Assembly: GCF_033721375.1 (NCBI RefSeq)
Contig: NZ_JAWWAP010000004.1
Span: 240,662-304,661, forward strand
Origin: Arsukibacterium sp.
GTDB taxonomy: Bacteria > Pseudomonadota > Gammaproteobacteria > Enterobacterales > Alteromonadaceae
Direction: 5' to 3'
Length of the DNA stretch: 64,000 bases
Shown piece by piece: positions 26,410 to 34,045 of this stretch. The notes below the pieces were generated by a model. The model searched no databases, was not told the origin of the DNA, and saw only the letters and a list, made by a program, of their open reading frames with translations. Position numbers and translations under genes: made by a program. Position 1 is the stretch's first letter. Each line of letters begins with the position of its first letter.

Positions 26410-27276
26410 ATGAGCATAGTGTATTTAAATGGTGATTTTATCCCGGCCGCAGAGGCCAGAATTTCACCGATGGATCGCGGTTTTTTATTTGGCGACGGCA
26501 TTTACGAAGTTATCCCCAGCTACAATGGTCGCTTTGTCGGCTTTAAGCCGCATATCGCCCGCATGCAGGATGGCCTGGCCCAACTGTCAATTGAACCTGG
26601 TTTGGCGCTTGCCGACTGGCAAAGCATTTGCCAGCGCCTGCTTACTGATAACCGTGCTACCAATGGCGATAATCAGGCAGTGTATATTCAGGTTAGCCGC
26701 GGTACCGATACCAAGCGTAACCATGCATTTCCGGCTAATATCAAAGCCACCGTCTTTGCCTATGCCTTCCCAATCGCCGCCGAACCGGTGGCCGATAAAA
26801 GTAAAGCTACCACTTTTAATGTTGTCACCGGCCAGGATTTGCGCTGGCAGCGCTGCCATATTAAATCAACATCATTGCTGGGCAACGTGTTGCATTATCA
26901 GCAGGGGTACGCCAGTGGCGCCCAGGAAATACTGCTGTTTGATAAAGACGGCAACTTAACCGAGGGCGCTGCAGTAAATGTGTTTGTTATAAAAGACGGC
27001 GTTATCGCCACGCCGCCGCTTACCACTAAATTACTGCCAGGTATTACCCGCTTATTGCTATTAAATATTCTGCGCAAACACAGCAGCATCAAAGTAGAAG
27101 AGCGCGATATTTCCGAGCAGGAAGTATTCGCCGCCGACGAAATCTGGCTTACCAGCTCCAGCAAGGAAATAGCGCCGGTACTCAAAGTAAACGAGCATAC
27201 GGTAGGCACAGGCGAAGTTGGCGATGTCTGGCTGGCGGCGCAACAGCTATTTAGCGCCCATAAGTATGATGAGTAA
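26410..27276 (+). CDS. dat: D-amino-acid (D-alanine) aminotransferase, fold-type IV PLP enzyme
   Basis: DRGFLFGDGIYEVIPSYNG and especially DLRWQRCHIKSTSLLGNVL parallel Bacillus Dat (DIRWLRCDIKSLNLLGAVL, with the catalytic Lys). 288 aa. Confidence 0.82.
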   Translation: MSIVYLNGDFIPAAEARISPMDRGFLFGDGIYEVIPSYNGRFVGFKPHIARMQDGLAQLSIEPGLALADWQSICQRLLTDNRATNGDNQAVYIQVSRGTDTKRNHAFPANIKATVFAYAFPIAAEPVADKSKATTFNVVTGQDLRWQRCHIKSTSLLGNVLHYQQGYASGAQEILLFDKDGNLTEGAAVNVFVIKDGVIATPPLTTKLLPGITRLLLLNILRKHSSIKVEERDISEQEVFAADEIWLTSSSKEIAPVLKVNEHTVGTGEVGDVWLAAQQLFSAHKYDE

Positions 27277-27295
27277 GCAGATCTCTAACTCGCCA

Positions 27296-27372
27296 CCGAA
27301 TCCCCCCTCTTTGCCAAAGAGTGAGCACTAACCCGTCCCACTTTAGCAAAGGGCGACCACAGGGGGATTTGC
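27296..27372. repeat. hairpin-rich REP-like element downstream of dat
   Basis: The outer inverted repeat aatccccc...gggggatt encloses two small palindromes (ctctttgccaaagag and ctttagcaaag). Only one copy occurs in the window. Confidence 0.4.
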
Positions 27373-27691
27373 TTTGATCTCAGGCCGGTTAATTGTATTC
27401 TGACCCCGATTTTTTTGCTGGATTTTTAGCCACTGGTACGATCAATCAACAGGATCCTGCGATCAAAAACCGGAACAGTCAGCAAAAAGGCCAAAAAATA
27501 AATTTTTTAACTAATACCTTTGTACTATAAAAAAGCGTGGCCGCAGCCCCTTTAAAAAACTATTTTTCTATTTAAGATAATAACTTAGCTATTTTTCGAT
27601 TATTAATTAACATTTAGCTTGCGCTACCCTGAAAAATCACCAAAATAGACATCAGCCCCCACGGCTAATTAAATCCTCAGGAGAAGTAAAA

Positions 27692-28093
27692 ATGAAACGT
27701 ACACAACAAGGTTTTACCTTAATTGAATTAATGATCGTGGTAGCGATCATCGGTATTTTAGCTGCAGTAGCACTGCCAGCTTATCGTGAATATGTAGCCA
27801 CCTCATACGGCGGCCAGGCGATGAAAGCTGTTTCATCTTATGTAAGTAAAATGCAAGCATGTGTTCAAACAGGTATTGGTTGCCAATCATTAAATGATGA
27901 AGTTACAGCTGAGCCTAAGCTTGCTTCAGGTGGCACTATCGAAGAAGCATTAGCAGCTGAGTTAACTTGGACAAATGACGGCTGTATTTTAACAGCAAAC
28001 TTAACTGCCCCTGGCGTATTAACTTATACCGCTACAGGTGTAGGCACAACTACTACTGCACAATGCGAAAAAGGTGCAGGTTTAGATAGCTAA
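27692..28093 (+). CDS. pilA: type IVa major pilin
   Basis: [34 protein letters not shown] is the class III signal with Gly-1, Phe+1 and Glu+5. 133 aa with four Cys, including a C-terminal pair. It ends ...GAGLDS. Good RBS (aggagaag). Confidence 0.93.
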
Positions 28094-28107
28094 TATCTAC
28101 TTGACTA

Positions 28108-28144
28108 AAGAAGCACTTCGGTGAGCGAAGTGCTTCTTTTTTTA
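28108..28144 (+). terminator. rho-independent terminator after pilA
   Basis: A 12-bp stem agaagcacttcg / cgaagtgcttct with loop gtga, followed by a run of seven T. Confidence 0.85.
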
Positions 28145-28165
28145 CCTCAAGGTGTAGTTTAAAAC

Positions 28166-29605
28166 GTGCAAAATTTTAGCTTAAAATACTTCCATCCCGT
28201 TTTTTACCTGCTTATTGTACCTAATTTTTTTCTATTTTTTGTTGCGGATTACCTTGGCATCGGCCGCTCGCCCGTCAACCTTGATTATTTATTTGCAGCG
28301 TTATTTGTATACTCTCGGGTTCCCATTATTGGCTATTTGGTATTCATAGTTTTTTTCATATTAGATATTTTAGCACTGCTGGTACAAGTATTTACGTTTG
28401 CCCGCCTGGAGCACTTAGTCTATTTATCAAGTTTTTTGCCTGATGCGCCTAAAGCATATCAAATCGCGACGTTGGCAGCCCTGCTGTGGTTAGCTGTGTT
28501 TATGGTTAATGCCGTAAAACTGAATAAAAATACCAACCTAACTCAAGCATTAGTATTGTTTAATCTTGCGCTTGGAATATTTGGAGTACACGTTTACACA
28601 GTAGACGCTAATAACACAGACAAGGTATGGCGCGTTCACAATGCTCCGCTGGTTGGCAGCCCGACATTACATACGTTGAAACATCGCAGCACGTTGTTTT
28701 ATCAATATTTCTATGCTGATGGCGAAACTTTTAGTAAGTTTGTTCCGCCAAGTGCCACGCAATTTAATAATGCACTATTTTACGAGAGTGGAAATGAGAA
28801 ATTATTACTCATTGTTAATGAGTCTTGGGGGGTAACTAAAGACGAGCGGATAAACGCGGAGTTAATGCGCCCGATTACACAATTAAATGATATGGTGAAA
28901 AACGTTCACAGCGGTCAAATTAATTTCTTAGGCGCGACAGTCGCGGGCGAACTTCGCGAGCTTTGCCATCTTTCTCCAAACCATTTTAATTTAAGAAACG
29001 CAGCTAGTGGCCTGGAAAACTGCATTCCTCATAAACTTAAGCAGCAAGGTTACTCCACCTCAGCATTTCATGCAGCATCAGGTGTAATGTATGACAGAAT
29101 TTATTGGTACGCAAAAGCCGGCTTTGATAGTGCCAGGTTTTTTGAAAATCTAAGCTGGACTCGCCGCTGTTACTCTTATCCTGGAGGCTGTGATGTCGAA
29201 CTAATTAACGCAGTAGTGGCTGATGTGGCACAACCAGGTAAGCGATTTACCTATTGGCTGACACTTAATTCACATGCCATTTACGACGAAAGGGATATTG
29301 TGACAGATCAATTCGACTGCCTGCAGTTTGCTGTTGAATCGAGCACACAGACCTGCCGTAATTTGAAACTACAAGCACAATTTTTCCATGTATTGGCCGA
29401 GCAAATTGCTGATAACAAATTGGCTGGCGCAAAAGTATTGATTGTTTCAGACCATGCGCCAGTTATTACAAATAAAATAGAGATGGAAAAATACTTTATC
29501 GACAACAAAGTGAACTGGCTCAGTTTCGATATTCCAGCAAATGCAGACATCTTCACTATAGAGAATGGCAAGACAACAGCTGCTTTACTAAGTGGCAAGC
29601 AATGA
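28166..29605 (+). CDS. membrane-anchored LtaS/OpgB/EptA-like sulfatase-superfamily transferase (candidate pilin phospho-form transferase)
   Basis: 479 aa. About 5 N-terminal hydrophobic helices precede a soluble domain with the motif order LLLIVNESWG, LGATVAGELRE, TSAFHAASGVMYDRIYWYAKAGFD, WLTLNSHAIYD, VLIVSDHAP. This parallels the metal-ligand, nucleophile and His motifs of LtaS-type alkaline-phosphatase-superfamily enzymes. GTG start. Markedly AT-rich. Confidence 0.7.
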   Translation: MQNFSLKYFHPVFYLLIVPNFFLFFVADYLGIGRSPVNLDYLFAALFVYSRVPIIGYLVFIVFFILDILALLVQVFTFARLEHLVYLSSFLPDAPKAYQIATLAALLWLAVFMVNAVKLNKNTNLTQALVLFNLALGIFGVHVYTVDANNTDKVWRVHNAPLVGSPTLHTLKHRSTLFYQYFYADGETFSKFVPPSATQFNNALFYESGNEKLLLIVNESWGVTKDERINAELMRPITQLNDMVKNVHSGQINFLGATVAGELRELCHLSPNHFNLRNAASGLENCIPHKLKQQGYSTSAFHAASGVMYDRIYWYAKAGFDSARFFENLSWTRRCYSYPGGCDVELINAVVADVAQPGKRFTYWLTLNSHAIYDERDIVTDQFDCLQFAVESSTQTCRNLKLQAQFFHVLAEQIADNKLAGAKVLIVSDHAPVITNKIEMEKYFIDNKVNWLSFDIPANADIFTIENGKTTAALLSGKQ

Positions 29606-29710
29606 GCTGCTATGTAAACTGGAAGCATTTCGAACCCAACCACTTTTTTAACCTTTTGCCGCTCCCGCTTTATTAAGTGACACCGAAAGTCAGCTTTTTC
29701 CGAACGATGA

Positions 29711-29974
29711 ACGAAATGTATTATGCCGGCTCACCATCAAACCAGTCAGTTCGTTCACTATCTCGCTGGTATGTCTTTTACACTTTATCTATTCCATTAC
29801 AAGCTGCTTCAGTTATATACATGTATGTTCAGTCAAAATGTTTTAGTTGGTGTAATAACTCTTGTGAGTGTTCTTTTAATCGCTCCGTGGACAGAAGGGC
29901 GTAAAGCCTATTGGTTAGGCTTTATCAACCAAATCAGTAGTCATTTGAGAAAGCGAATACGCGAAAGGTATTAA
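29711..29974 (+). pseudogene. 3' remnant of an acyltransferase-3 (OafA-like) gene
   Basis: The frame opens at 29711. FVHYLAGMSFTLYLFHYKLL followed by a hydrophobic helix resembles the conserved C-terminal SYSxYLxH region of acyltransferase_3 proteins, which normally run about 350 aa. Only about 85 codons are present. Confidence 0.4.
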
Positions 29975-30051
29975 ACTTGAATAACCGCTAAATGCTGGCA
30001 TAATCAAAGCATTCACGGGAAATTTATAGCATCTTAGGATATTTACGCTGT

Positions 30052-31746
30052 ATGGCGGTTAATGCAAATTCCACCTTATTAAAGCGCTTATTGCAACAGG
30101 GCATTATCGATAGCGATAAAGCCACAAAAGCGATTAGCGAAAGAAGCGGCAATTACCGTACCCTGCCGGAACTGTTAATTAATGAAAAGTTAATAGGCTC
30201 CGCCCGGCTGGCGGAAATGGCCACCCAGGTTAGCCATGCCCTGAGTATCGACCTGGATTATTACGATTTAGTCTCGGTACCGGAAGATTTACGTAATGAA
30301 AAGCTGATCCGTAAAAACGATATGCTGCCGCTGGCCAAACGTGGCCGTACTATGTACCTGGCCGTAATAGACCCAACCAATATTGCCGCGATAGAAGATT
30401 TTGAGTTTAATACCGGCCTCAATGCTGAAGTGGTAGTAGTTGAATTTGATAAGCTGCAAAAACTAATTGAAAAGTTGTTTGACAGCAGTTTTAACCTGGC
30501 CGGTGATGCCGCCGACTGGGATTTAGGATCCTTAGGTATAGTTGAAGAGCAGGAAGACGAAGGAGCCGTTACCGCCGATAAAGAAGACCAGCCGATTATC
30601 GCCTTTATTAATAAAATGCTACTCGATGCGATACGCAAGGGCGCCTCGGACTTACACTTTGAGCCCTATGAAAAACTGTATCGGATTCGCTTTAGGATAG
30701 ACGGTATTTTAAATGAAGTCGCTAACCCGCCGGTGGCGCTGGCCAGCCGGCTATCGGCCCGCTTAAAAGTTATGTCGCGGCTCGACATTGCCGAGAAGCG
30801 AGTACCGCAGGATGGCCGGATAAAACTTAAATTATCGGCTAAAAAATCGATCGATTTTCGGGTCAGCAGTCTGCCTACCCTCTGGGGCGAGAAAATTGTA
30901 ATGCGGATCCTCGATTCTGACAGCGCCATGCTGGGGATTGACGTATTAGGTTATGAAGATATTCAGAAGCAGCGCTATTTAGCAGCGCTGGCTCAGCCGC
31001 AGGGCATGATTTTAGTGACCGGCCCGACCGGTAGCGGTAAAACGGTGTCGCTTTATACTGGCCTGGCGATTTTAAATACCAGCGAGACTAATATATCTAC
31101 CGCCGAAGATCCGGTTGAAATTAACCTCACCGGTATTAATCAAGTGCAGGTAAACCCGCGCGCTGGCTTAACCTTTGCTACCGCATTAAAATCATTTTTA
31201 CGCCAGGACCCGGATGTGGTCATGGTCGGTGAAATCCGGGATTTAGAAACGGCCGAAATAGCCATTAAAGCGGCCCAGACCGGTCACTTAGTGTTATCAA
31301 CGTTGCACACTAACTCGGCCCCGGAAACCCTGACTCGACTGCTTAATATGGGCGTACCGGCCTATAATGTGGCCAGTTCTGTCAGCTTGATTATTGCCCA
31401 GCGCCTGGCCCGCCGGCTCTGCCCGCAGTGTAAAGCACCAGAGAAACTGCCCGATCAGGAGTTACTGCGCCAGGGCTTTACCGAAGAGCAGCTTGACAGC
31501 ATCACCATTTTTAAACCGGTCGGTTGCGATCATTGCACCAATGGCTATAAAGGCCGGGTCGGTATTTATGAAGTAATGCCCATCAGCGGTAAAATGGCCG
31601 ATATTATTATGGCCGATGGTAACTCTTTAGATATTGCTACCCAGGCCCAGAAAGAAGGCATCAATAGCTTACGCCAGTCGGGCTTAATTAAAGCCGCCGC
31701 CGGGGTAACCAGCCTGGCCGAAGTTAACCGCGTAACTAAAGGTTAA
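30052..31746 (+). CDS. pilB: type IV pilus assembly ATPase PilB
   Basis: 564 aa. GSPII_E N-terminal domain, Walker A GPTGSGKT, Asp/His boxes, and the tetracysteine motif CPQC...CDHC. Confidence 0.95.
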
Positions 31747-31765: not shown

Positions 31766-31828
31766 AGTGACAAGTGACAAGTGACAAGTGACAAGTGACA
31801 AGTGACAAGTGACAAGTGACAAGTGACA
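31766..31828. repeat. perfect heptanucleotide microsatellite (AGTGACA)x9
   Basis: Nine uninterrupted AGTGACA units, counted directly. They start 20 nt after the pilB stop and end 77 nt before the pilC start. Confidence 0.98.
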
Positions 31829-31904: not shown

Positions 31905-33134
31905 ATGGCTCAGGCACAAAAATTTAAAATTAAAGAGCTGGAAATTTATCAATATAAAGGGGTAAACCGTCGCGGCAAAAAAGCCGATGGCGAGTTAAAA
32001 GGTAATAGCATAGCCGAAGTAAAGGCTCTGCTTCGCCAGCAGGGTATTACCCCGTCTAAGGTAAAACGTAAACCGAAATCATTGTTTGGCGGCGAGAGAA
32101 AAATCACCGCGATGGATATTGCCGTGGTAACCCGCCAGATTGCTACTATGCTGGGTGCCGGTGTACCACTGGTGCAAAGTGTCGATCTCATTGCCAATGG
32201 TGCTGATAATAAAGGTCTGCGCACCTTAATGCAGAAAATTTCAGTAAAAATCCAGTCGGGTTTGCCGCTATCCGAAGTGCTGCGCGAGCACCCAAAATAT
32301 TTTGATGAGCTTTACTGCGATTTAGTTAAATCGGGCGAGCAGTCCGGTGCGCTGGATCGGATATTTGACCGCATCGCGATTTATAAAGAGAAGGCTGAAG
32401 CCCTTAAATCTAAAATTAAAAAAGCGATGTTTTACCCGATAGCAGTATTAGTGGTTGCCGCTATTGTTACCTCAATTTTGTTGATTTTTGTGGTTCCGCA
32501 ATTTGCTGAAATTTTTGCTAGTTTTGGTGCTGAACTCCCGGCTTTTACCCAGTTTGTCTTGGGTATCTCGGAAATGATGCAAGAGTACTGGTGGATCGTT
32601 TTAGCGGGTCTATTTGCTTTTGGCTATGTGGTTAAAAAAGCTTATGCCAATAATTTAAAATTCCGCACTATGGCCGATGGCTGGATTATAAAAGCACCTG
32701 TTATCGGTAGTATTTTAAATAAAGCGGCAGTCGCCCGCTTTGCCCGCACCTTATCGACTACCTTTGCTGCCGGCGTGCCATTAATTGAAGCGCTGGAGTC
32801 AGCGGCCGGCGCCTCGGGTAACGAAGTCTACCGTAATGCAATTATGCATATCCGGGAAGAAGTCTCGTCCGGTACCCAGATGTATTTAGCGATGAAACAA
32901 ACTGATCAGTTTCCGGAAATGGTCATTCAGATGGTATCGATTGGTGAAGAGTCCGGCGCGCTGGATGGCATGCTGGAAAAAGTCGCCAATATTTATGAGC
33001 AGGAAGTGGATGATGCCGTAGATGGCTTAACCGCGCTGCTGGAGCCAATGATAATGGCGGTATTGGGCGTGGTTATCGGTGGTTTAATTATTGCCATGTA
33101 TCTGCCTATTTTCCAAATGGGTGCGATTATTTAA
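31905..33134 (+). CDS. pilC: type IV pilus platform protein PilC
   Basis: 409 aa with two GspF/T2SSF repeats (TRQIATMLGAGVPL... and ARTLSTTFAAGVPL...) and a typical PilC ending, IIAMYLPIFQMG. Confidence 0.95.
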   Translation: MAQAQKFKIKELEIYQYKGVNRRGKKADGELKGNSIAEVKALLRQQGITPSKVKRKPKSLFGGERKITAMDIAVVTRQIATMLGAGVPLVQSVDLIANGADNKGLRTLMQKISVKIQSGLPLSEVLREHPKYFDELYCDLVKSGEQSGALDRIFDRIAIYKEKAEALKSKIKKAMFYPIAVLVVAAIVTSILLIFVVPQFAEIFASFGAELPAFTQFVLGISEMMQEYWWIVLAGLFAFGYVVKKAYANNLKFRTMADGWIIKAPVIGSILNKAAVARFARTLSTTFAAGVPLIEALESAAGASGNEVYRNAIMHIREEVSSGTQMYLAMKQTDQFPEMVIQMVSIGEESGALDGMLEKVANIYEQEVDDAVDGLTALLEPMIMAVLGVVIGGLIIAMYLPIFQMGAII

Positions 33135-34045
33135 TGACTGAACTTGCCAGCTATTTAAGCCAGCATAGCTGGCTTTTTATTACCCTTGTTACCGTGATCA
33201 GTTTACTGATTGGCAGCTTTTTAAATGTGCTGGTATACCGCCTGCCAAAAATGATGGAGCGCGAGTGGCAGCAGGAGTATCAGGCCTATTTTCAGGCAGA
33301 TGCCAGTTTAACCACTGATCCCAGAACTGCAGCTAAACCCGCTGCAACAGAACCCTTTAACCTGGCAGTACCGCGATCGCGCTGCCCGAACTGCCATACC
33401 CCTATTGCCGCCCGCGATAATATTCCGGTAGTAAGCTGGTTGCTGTTAAAAGGCCGCTGCCGCCACTGTCAGGCACCGATAAGCAGCCGTTATCCGGCGG
33501 TGGAAGCATTAACTGCCATATTATCAGCGCTGGTGGCCTGGCAATATGGCTTTGGCATGCCGGCGCTTGTGCTGATATTTGTCACCTGGGGCTTAATAGC
33601 CCTGAGTTTTATTGATATCGATACCATGCTGTTACCCGACAGCCTGACCCTGCCACTGCTGTGGCTGGCGCTGTTATTCAGCCTGACTGATTCAGCCTTA
33701 GTTAATCCTTCTCAGGCTATCGTTGGCGCCGCTGCCGGCTACCTCAGCTTATGGCTGGTGTACTGGGGCTTTAAACTGCTGACCGGTAAGGAAGGCATGG
33801 GTTATGGCGATTTTAAATTGCTGGCCATTTTTGGCGCCCTGCTTGGCTGGCAACAGCTGCCACTGATTATTTTACTATCGTCGGTAGTGGGCGCAGTGAT
33901 TGGTGCCAGCATGCTGGCCATTCAGGGTCGCGACAAGGCAACGCCTATTCCATTCGGCCCGTACATTGCTGCCGCTGGCTTTATTGCCCTGCTATGGGGT
34001 GAGCAACTGACTAACGCCTATTTAAATTACCTTGGGCACTATTAA
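33134..34045 (+). CDS. pilD: prepilin peptidase / N-methyltransferase PilD
   Basis: 303 aa. Zinc-binding CPNC...CRHC motifs, the catalytic Asp regions (IDIDTMLLPD and GMGYGDFKL), and a multi-TM profile. The start overlaps the pilC stop. Confidence 0.95.
   Translation: MTELASYLSQHSWLFITLVTVISLLIGSFLNVLVYRLPKMMEREWQQEYQAYFQADASLTTDPRTAAKPAATEPFNLAVPRSRCPNCHTPIAARDNIPVVSWLLLKGRCRHCQAPISSRYPAVEALTAILSALVAWQYGFGMPALVLIFVTWGLIALSFIDIDTMLLPDSLTLPLLWLALLFSLTDSALVNPSQAIVGAAAGYLSLWLVYWGFKLLTGKEGMGYGDFKLLAIFGALLGWQQLPLIILLSSVVGAVIGASMLAIQGRDKATPIPFGPYIAAAGFIALLWGEQLTNAYLNYLGHY

Follow-up and report, generated by a model that had tools for sequence, protein, structure and literature searches.

A 64,000-nucleotide stretch of the Arsukibacterium sp. 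contig NZ_JAWWAP010000004.1 (positions 240,662 to 304,661; this whole stretch is referred to as the window) contains the type IV pilin gene pilA, which is followed on the same strand by an intrinsic terminator and by an open reading frame (ORF) of 479 aa. Here, this ORF is analyzed as the candidate gene for a pilin-modifying phosphotransferase. The features of the locus on which the analysis is based are the following (coordinates refer to the window).

27200..30200, no strand: AT-rich variable island with the pilin cassette, extending from an aminotransferase-like core gene (which ends at 27276) to pilB
27692..28093, + strand: pilA, major type IV pilin, 133 aa (Pfam N_methyl, E = 8e-11; NCBIfam pilin models)
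28107..28146, + strand: intrinsic terminator that separates pilA from the accessory gene (stem of 14 bp plus T-run; hairpin at 28107-28139)
28166..29605, + strand: gene for a PptB-like/LtaS-type phosphotransferase, 479 aa, GTG start (ORF; Pfam Sulfatase)
28166..28606, + strand: N-terminal membrane domain of this protein with about five transmembrane (TM) helices (AlphaFold2 [AF2] helices, hydropathy)
28790..29530, + strand: its predicted periplasmic catalytic domain (invariant columns aligned to the catalytic motifs of GacH)

The pilin gene, the strong terminator, and the ORF had been described in an initial annotation, and all three are present. PilA has the leader MKRTQQG/FTLIELM with the prepilin N-methylation motif and four Cys, and it ends with ...GAGLDS directly before the stop codon, so that its last residue is Ser133 (precursor numbering). 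The terminator stem (28107-28139) has 6 G-C pairs among its 14 bp, and the RNA fold has a z-score of -4.0, with none of 200 shuffled sequences folding equally well; it probably attenuates read-through from pilA. The ORF starts 72 nt past the pilA stop codon and about 20-27 nt past the terminator. The distance of 22 nt given initially thus applies to the terminator but not to the pilA stop codon. An identical NCBI protein (P0001, Arsukibacterium sp.) is annotated with the same start and the same length. The interval had also been described as AT-rich, which is borne out by a G+C content of 0.37-0.44 at ~27200-30200, compared to ~0.50-0.58 upstream and 0.45-0.54 downstream. The order of pilin, terminator, and accessory gene corresponds to the layout of known pilin-modification cassettes, and a terminator which separates the pilin from the accessory gene has been reported as a general trait of pilin-accessory cassettes (PMC11841053).

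The five sequence motifs of the ORF occur in the order noted initially: LLLIVNESWG (residues 213-222), GATVAGE (256-262), FHAASGVMYDRIYWYAKAGFD (301-321), LTLNSHAIYD (365-374), and LIVSDHAP (425-432). The TM helices, which had been estimated to number about five, were located by the AF2 model and by hydropathy at residues ~10-30, 40-50, 53-76, 97-117, and 126-145 and are thus confined to residues ~10-145. The positively charged KLNKN loop at residues 118-122 is consistent with a cytoplasmic position, so that the C-terminal domain would be periplasmic. In a family alignment of 39 sequences with 28-80% identity to the query, nine residues are invariant (E219, S220, T258, E262, H302, R311, H370, D429, and H430), and so are six Cys (267, 286, 335, 342, 385, and 397). 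Taken together, the topology and the six invariant Cys argue for a periplasmic active site. T258 is the predicted nucleophile.

The assignment to the sulfatase/alkaline phosphatase superfamily has statistical support from Pfam, a family profile, and Foldseek. In Pfam, Sulfatase (PF00884) is the sole match (32 bits, cut-off 25). None of the NCBIfam models, OpgB included, matched the ORF at E <= 1. A single-sequence search of the PDB did not return a meaningful match and a family profile was needed, which retrieved GacH (E = 8e-7), LtaP (E = 5e-5), LtaS (E = 1e-4), and the LtaS-like protein VP1736. No EptA, MCR, or EptC chain was retrieved up to E = 1, and the profile matches are thus restricted to the phosphoglycerol-transferase branch. 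The aligned motifs of the family and of its structurally solved relatives are ESwG and SESL, GaTvagE and GGTANME, H..YdR and H..FNR, nsH and QNH, and gDH and GDH, respectively. Within this alignment, the H302...Y309-D310-R311 and H370 columns correspond to the H...[FY]N-R and QNH motifs of GacH and LtaP.

Structure prediction and a Foldseek search, as the initial annotation had proposed, identified an LtaS/GacH-type fold. In the AF2 model (predicted local distance difference test score [pLDDT] 85), a compact alpha/beta domain follows about five TM helices at the N-terminus. The best Foldseek matches (E between 2e-9 and 6e-8) were LtaP (4uop, E = 2e-9), VP1736 (3lxq), and LtaS (2w8d, 4uoo, and 2w5q; best E = 7e-9), followed at lower ranks by EptC (E = 8e-8), MCR-1 (E = 2e-7), GacH, PbgA, and sulfatases. 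Three features of LtaS/GacH-type enzymes are present in the ORF: a TM bundle with a sulfatase fold, the Thr/Glu/Asp/His site, and similarity in both sequence and fold. Based on these sequence and model comparisons, we consider it very likely that the ORF codes for an intact and catalytically competent phosphotransferase of this type. With LtaS, LtaP, and GacH, it has in common the five TM helices, the extracytoplasmic domain of the alkaline phosphatase fold, the Thr nucleophile, the Glu/Asp/His metal site, and the H...R...H motifs. It differs in sequence (~15% identity), in the size of the catalytic domain (~290 aa vs ~420), in having three predicted disulfides, and in its Gram-negative host. 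The predicted acceptor, a protein Ser, also differs from theirs, which is a glycolipid or a rhamnan.

The family is found in type IV pilus-making Gamma- and Betaproteobacteria. Matches were obtained in 316 species-level genomes and in 685 clusters at 50% identity (E <= 1e-30). The genera include Rheinheimera, Pseudomonas sensu lato, Marinobacter, Halomonas, Alcanivorax, Acinetobacter, Psychrobacter, Moraxella, Kingella, Eikenella, Simonsiella, Neisseria, Cardiobacterium, Snodgrassella, Thauera, and Hydrogenophaga. Copies of the enzyme gene carried by phages were looked for and none was found. The gene neighbourhood was surveyed for 80 species-level loci, 75 of which had sufficient upstream DNA, with the following result.

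Pilin gene at most 400 bp upstream on the same strand: 39/75 loci
Pilin gene upstream with one intervening gene: 10/75 loci
Pilin gene elsewhere within 6 kb: 13/75 loci
No pilin gene within 6 kb: 13/75 loci

A pilin gene is thus located directly upstream (including cases with one gene between) in 49 of the 75 loci and within 6 kb in 62. In the initial annotation, a lack of pilin linkage among homologs had been named as a possible refutation, and the survey turned out in favour of linkage.

The initial annotation had also suggested that the C-terminal Ser of the pilin might be the modified residue, and the survey of relatives favours this idea. Among the 49 upstream-adjacent pilins, 31 end with Ser, and 21 of these end with Gly-Ser, typically as C-x-x-G-S. 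Among 57 other pilins encoded in the same loci, only five end with Ser and most have the usual ...C-[RKE] terminus (Fisher p = 2e-9, a value which overstates independence because the loci share descent and cassette transfer). At least 15 genera of Gamma- and Betaproteobacteria are represented among the Ser-tailed pilins, which vary widely in both length and sequence. Neighbour-joining of the enzymes gave a tree in which the clade of the window protein is almost uniformly paired with ...G-S pilins, whereas the pilins next to the Neisseriaceae/Moraxellaceae/Cardiobacteriaceae clade have variable tails. The enzyme from the betaproteobacterium Thauera mechernichensis nests within a Pseudomonas clade (loci L009, L022, and L026), and the tail of the short Thauera pilin (...TTSCALGS) resembles those of the Pseudomonas group (...TTTCSAGS, ...TASCSVGS). 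The sequences thus suggest that pilin and enzyme were transferred jointly as a cassette.

The C-terminal residue is also the target of TfpO (PilO) and TfpM, whose pilins end with the modified Ser or Thr. Their genes are found directly 3' of pilA past a terminator, and the window gene thus occupies the same slot without belonging to the same family. TfpO and TfpM have an unrelated polytopic Wzy_C fold and transfer an undecaprenyl-linked glycan, whereas Wzy_C is absent from the window ORF. A TfpO-like (Wzy_C) gene is present in only 9 of the 80 loci. Such a gene is lacking within 6 kb for 24 of the 31 adjacent pilins with a Ser tail, and tblastn did not detect any Wzy_C-like ORF in the 64-kb window.

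A probable relative with an established role in pilin modification is PptB, the pilin phosphotransferase B of Neisseria meningitidis (Chamot-Rooke et al. 2011, as cited in PMC8445170 and PMC10948894). The meningococcal gene is needed for attachment of phosphoglycerol to PilE at Ser69 and Ser93/97, and this modification weakens pilus bundling. PptB-dependent phosphoglycerol on Ser69 of PilE has been observed by mass spectrometry and cryo-EM. The gene is reported to be contact-regulated, under the control of the contact regulatory element of Neisseria (CREN).

The window ORF matches one gene in each of two complete gonococcal chromosomes contained in PLSDB. One of these (L115:5875-7332; L115 corresponds to NZ_CP119140.1, 1006511-1019836) codes for a protein of 485 aa with a Pfam Sulfatase domain which is 33% identical to the window protein over 451 aa (E = 8e-71). 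It has the same architecture of five TM helices plus a catalytic domain, has the same invariant motifs, and is 67% identical to a pilin-linked gene of the commensal N. mucosa. Both published pptB primers for quantitative PCR (qPCR; PMC5383330, PMC8445170) are located within this gene and delimit an amplicon of ~80 bp. The forward primer has two mismatches, at the KG[VT]EVII motif. The reverse primer (pptB_rev, L115:7278-7297) is exact apart from a 4-nt duplication, the extra ACCT of the printed sequence (ACCTTCCGCTACCT[ACCT]CAAACA), which is probably a typing error in the two publications. The region upstream of L115:5875-7332 is a repeat with 19 copies in the chromosome, which is consistent with the reported CREN control of pptB. 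PptB would thus be a member of the family of the window enzyme, as judged from the qPCR primers of one laboratory and not from a deposited protein. Its substrate is a type IV pilin, to which it adds phosphoglycerol at Ser. The gene of pathogenic Neisseria is contact-regulated, is not linked to pilE, and has a product that targets internal sites, whereas the window gene is the accessory gene in a pilA cassette, is separated from pilA by a terminator, and belongs to a clade that covaries with a C-terminal Gly-Ser.

Several other attempts to trace pptB were unproductive. A scan of metagenomes with the forward primer gave 31 chance matches, none of which codes for a homolog, and the pptB primers mapped to N. 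mucosa DNA no better than shuffled primers. A partial Neisseria sequence used as protein query yielded just eight matches, and there was no N. meningitidis name among the 120 matches listed in a further protein search. Literature searches for NMV_0885 (PptB) and for pptB together with sulfatase had no match, and no pptB primers were present in the part of the PMC3814720 supplement examined here. The two gonococcal sequences (L115 and NZ_CP119142.1) are listed as plasmids in PLSDB but are mislabelled N. gonorrhoeae chromosomes of 2.17 Mb, and the gene table of both records is almost empty. With respect to N. mucosa, the first of the two pilins encoded upstream of the N. mucosa-type enzyme gene (L112:966-1454) carries a long Ala/Gly-rich insert (AAAGGAAGGAAAGGAASAGS) before its D-region.

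We consider it probable (at roughly 0.6) that the ORF codes for a pilA-linked accessory phosphoglycerol transferase of the PptB family which modifies the pilin, probably at its C-terminal Ser. The basis for this reading consists of the gene order, the terminator, the fold, the invariant catalytic residues, the homology to the target of the pptB primers, the synteny with pilin genes, and the covariation with a C-terminal Ser. From these, we infer the activity itself, its expression, the donor lipid, the acceptor residue, and the phenotype.

In the proposed mechanism, pilA would be strongly transcribed and a fraction of the transcripts would pass the terminator (28107-28139), resulting in low expression of the accessory gene. 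Thr258, positioned at a metal site with Glu219, Asp429, and His430 as ligands, would attack the phosphodiester of a membrane phospholipid, which would release diacylglycerol and leave a glycerol-phosphate-Thr intermediate. The donor would most likely be phosphatidylglycerol, with transfer of sn-glycerol-1-phosphate, because of the motif match to GacH and LtaP and because sequence similarity is exclusively to glycerol-phosphate transferases. The glycerol phosphate would then be passed to a Ser hydroxyl of the pilin prior to its assembly, while the pilin is still tethered to the inner membrane and its globular domain faces the periplasm. In the clade of the window protein, the acceptor would be the terminal Ser, which is residue 133 of the precursor and is part of an exposed tail past the last disulfide. 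The outcome would be a negatively charged tag on each subunit at the pilus surface. By analogy, such a tag may affect pilus-pilus bundling, as reported for PptB, and recognition by phages and antibodies, as with glycosylation by TfpO.

Several observations weigh against this reading, in addition to the shared descent that was mentioned for the Fisher value. The variable pilin tails next to the Neisseriaceae/Moraxellaceae/Cardiobacteriaceae clade and the internal position of the Neisseria PptB sites (Ser69, Ser93/97) imply that a C-terminal site is not family-wide. In nine loci, those with a TfpO-like gene, the Ser could carry a glycan instead. Thirteen of the 75 loci are devoid of a pilin within 6 kb, and the gonococcal gene is unlinked to pilE, having argS upstream and an ABC permease gene downstream. 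The connection between PptB and the family hangs on the qPCR primers from one laboratory, and the pptB deletion primers from PMC12819557 (5'_pptB and 3'_pptB) match, with 0-1 mismatch, the flanks of a different gene, a ScpA-family ORF (L115:1469-2323) which is located 3.5 kb upstream of L115:5875-7332. Perhaps one of the two assignments of pptB is incorrect, or N. meningitidis Z5463 has another gene order.

A less likely alternative is that the enzyme acts on the pilin but transfers another head group (e.g., phosphoethanolamine [PEtN]) or targets an internal Ser or Thr, such as the TTTT stretch or a Ser of the alpha-beta-loop. The PEtN transferases EptC, MCR-1, and BcsG belong to the same superfamily and are strong Foldseek matches (E from 8e-8 to 2e-5), but matches at the sequence level are confined to the GacH/LtaP/LtaS branch and include the H...[YF][ND]R motif of LtaP and GacH. 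PptA, which had been put forward initially as the Neisseria precedent, and EptA belong to the same superfamily and share the general ping-pong chemistry; PptA also decorates Ser residues of pilin. The donor head group is different, however, no EptA or MCR chain was found by the profile at E <= 1, and the fold matches are weaker than those of the LtaS type. Given the homology of the window ORF to the gonococcal target of the pptB primers, PptB is the closer precedent. As to an internal site, the Neisseria PptB sites are of this kind and the pilins beside the enzymes of the Neisseriaceae clade are not Ser-terminal, but the ...G-S tails are near-universal in the clade of the window protein despite the high diversity of its pilins, which range from 107 to 157 mature residues.

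An unlikely explanation is that the enzyme decorates a glycan (a pilin-linked sugar, lipopolysaccharide, capsule, or periplasmic glucan) rather than the pilin polypeptide. In that case, the gene would be adjacent to pilA only because surface-variation genes acquired by horizontal transfer have a hot spot in the pilA-pilB interval, and the island is indeed AT-rich and variable. GacH and OpgB-type relatives act on polysaccharides, the companion genes include acyltransferase-3, Wzy_C (nine loci), and a PMT_2-like protein (two loci), and a glycan substrate would be compatible with the 13 loci without a nearby pilin. However, the ORF does not match OpgB or any other NCBIfam model, tblastn found no Wzy_C-like ORF in the window, and adjacency to a pilin on the same strand is retained across two proteobacterial classes. 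Hitch-hiking would not provide a reason for covariation with the last residue of the pilin, and the homolog PptB is required for modification of the pilin protein itself. Specifically, identity with the glucan enzyme OpgB (MdoB) was rejected, given the lack of an NCBIfam match and the presence of a pilin within 6 kb in 62/75 loci.

A non-catalytic factor with a retained fold (like PbgA/YejM) which aids assembly of its cognate pilin (like TfpY-like proteins) is highly improbable, as the Thr nucleophile, the metal ligands, and the phosphate-binding His/Arg are invariant down to 28% identity, the pattern expected of an active enzyme, even though PbgA/YejM structures (6v8q, 6xlp) are among the fold matches and some of the TfpX/Y/Z pilin accessory proteins have no enzymatic role.

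The cassettes encode additional proteins. In the window, the enzyme gene is followed by the remnant of an acyltransferase-3 gene.

29732..29965 (ORF 29723-29974), + strand: acyltransferase-3 gene, 3' remnant (corresponds to residues 297-374 out of 374)

The last ~78 codons are left and the first ~296 are missing. The remnant has weak matches to Pfam Acyl_transf_3 and NCBIfam MdoC, and tblastn gives 54% identity (E = 2e-26) to the intact gene of an uncultured Rheinheimera (L006:7433-8557), which overlaps the stop codon of the enzyme gene. In R. maricola (L005:7560-8587), the gene is split in two. The reduction to a remnant indicates that the cassette is decaying in the window. OpgC/MdoC is a member of the acyltransferase-3 family. 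Eight loci (L007, L008, L012, L014, L016, L027, L029, and L049) code for a periplasmic beta-lactamase-fold protein (PF00144) with an N-terminal membrane anchor, the gene being positioned between those for the pilin and the enzyme or just after (e.g., L016:4739-5923 and L012:7498-8661). PF00144 is the fold of FmtA, the staphylococcal teichoic-acid D-Ala esterase, and the PF00144 protein may be a tailor of the pilin modification. Recurrent members of the cassettes also include TfpY-like proteins, a second pilin, and tandem paralogs. The companion genes suggest further tailoring of whatever is attached.

On this background, a more far-reaching idea, which we regard as quite improbable, is that the family constitutes a sixth, widely distributed class among the pilin accessory enzymes and builds a teichoic-acid-like decoration on the C-terminal Ser. 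By analogy to LtaS, the enzyme could add more than one glycerol phosphate, and the acyltransferase-3 and PF00144 companions would then be tailoring enzymes for the phosphoglycerol tag. If this is true, surface filaments of Gram-negative bacteria would carry a protein modification of a new kind.

Two other pilin-associated proteins were considered as identities for the window protein and rejected. In the pilin inversion system of Moraxella bovis/lacunata, the inversion ORF "tfpB" is a separate membrane protein of 195 aa (M. lacunata, L072), and the LtaS-like gene is located just beyond piv. The FimB proteins, relevant to Dichelobacter FimB and Eikenella PilB, are TfpY-like (PMC11841053). The TfpY/FimB/tfpB accessory proteins are small membrane proteins (~200-260 aa), which contrasts with the 479 aa of the window enzyme.

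In Moraxella (M. lacunata, L072, 2531-8572; also L057, L059, and L069), the family gene is directly beside piv, the recombinase gene of the invertible tfpQ/tfpI pilin segment, and is followed by a TfpY-like gene and another pilin gene. It is thus outside of the inversion but inside the pilin locus. Tandem paralogs of the enzyme gene were found in metagenome-assembled genomes of rumen Neisseriaceae (L043, L053, and L066), where no pilin is encoded within 6 kb, and in Hydrogenophaga (L073-L076), where two pilins are encoded 2.4-3.7 kb upstream.

Downstream of the cassette, the window carries the pilus assembly genes.

30052-31746, + strand: pilB, assembly ATPase (ORF; context gene)
31905-33134, + strand: pilC, platform protein (ORF; context gene)
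33134-34045, + strand: pilD, prepilin peptidase (ORF; context gene)

Homologs of pilB, pilC, and pilD flank the cassette in related loci, and the PilB homologs match Pfam T2SSE. The Rheinheimera relatives differ in what they carry between the enzyme gene and pilB. Within the 158-nt gap between pilB and pilC, there is a perfect heptanucleotide tandem repeat ((AGTGACA)x9, 100% match, 31766-31828). Similar repeats were not found in six Rheinheimera loci or in the rest of the window. The repeat could be a slipped-strand switch acting on pilC expression.

The initial annotation had not known of an LtaS-like gene in the tfpO position, and the literature that was searched likewise contains no account of such a gene in the pilin accessory slot or of a link to Gly-Ser tails. 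The kind of enzyme, represented by PptB, is already known; the cassette arrangement, the breadth of distribution, and the predicted C-terminal site are new. To our knowledge, the pilin-linked modification enzymes known so far are glycosyltransferases (TfpO, TfpW, TfpM), and we know of phospho-form modification of pilin from Neisseria only, with the genes being unlinked to pilE. Pilin modification governs pilus bundling, adhesion, recognition by antibodies, and susceptibility to pilus-specific phages. If the window enzyme is indeed a pilin phosphoglycerol transferase, PptB-type tagging would be a common, cassette-encoded option in Pseudomonas, Acinetobacter, Moraxella, Psychrobacter, Kingella, Marinobacter, Halomonas, and many environmental bacteria. 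A pilin that ends with Gly-Ser and is followed by a gene of this family would be its predictive signature, and the tag would be a new variable for work on pilus phages and pilus vaccines.

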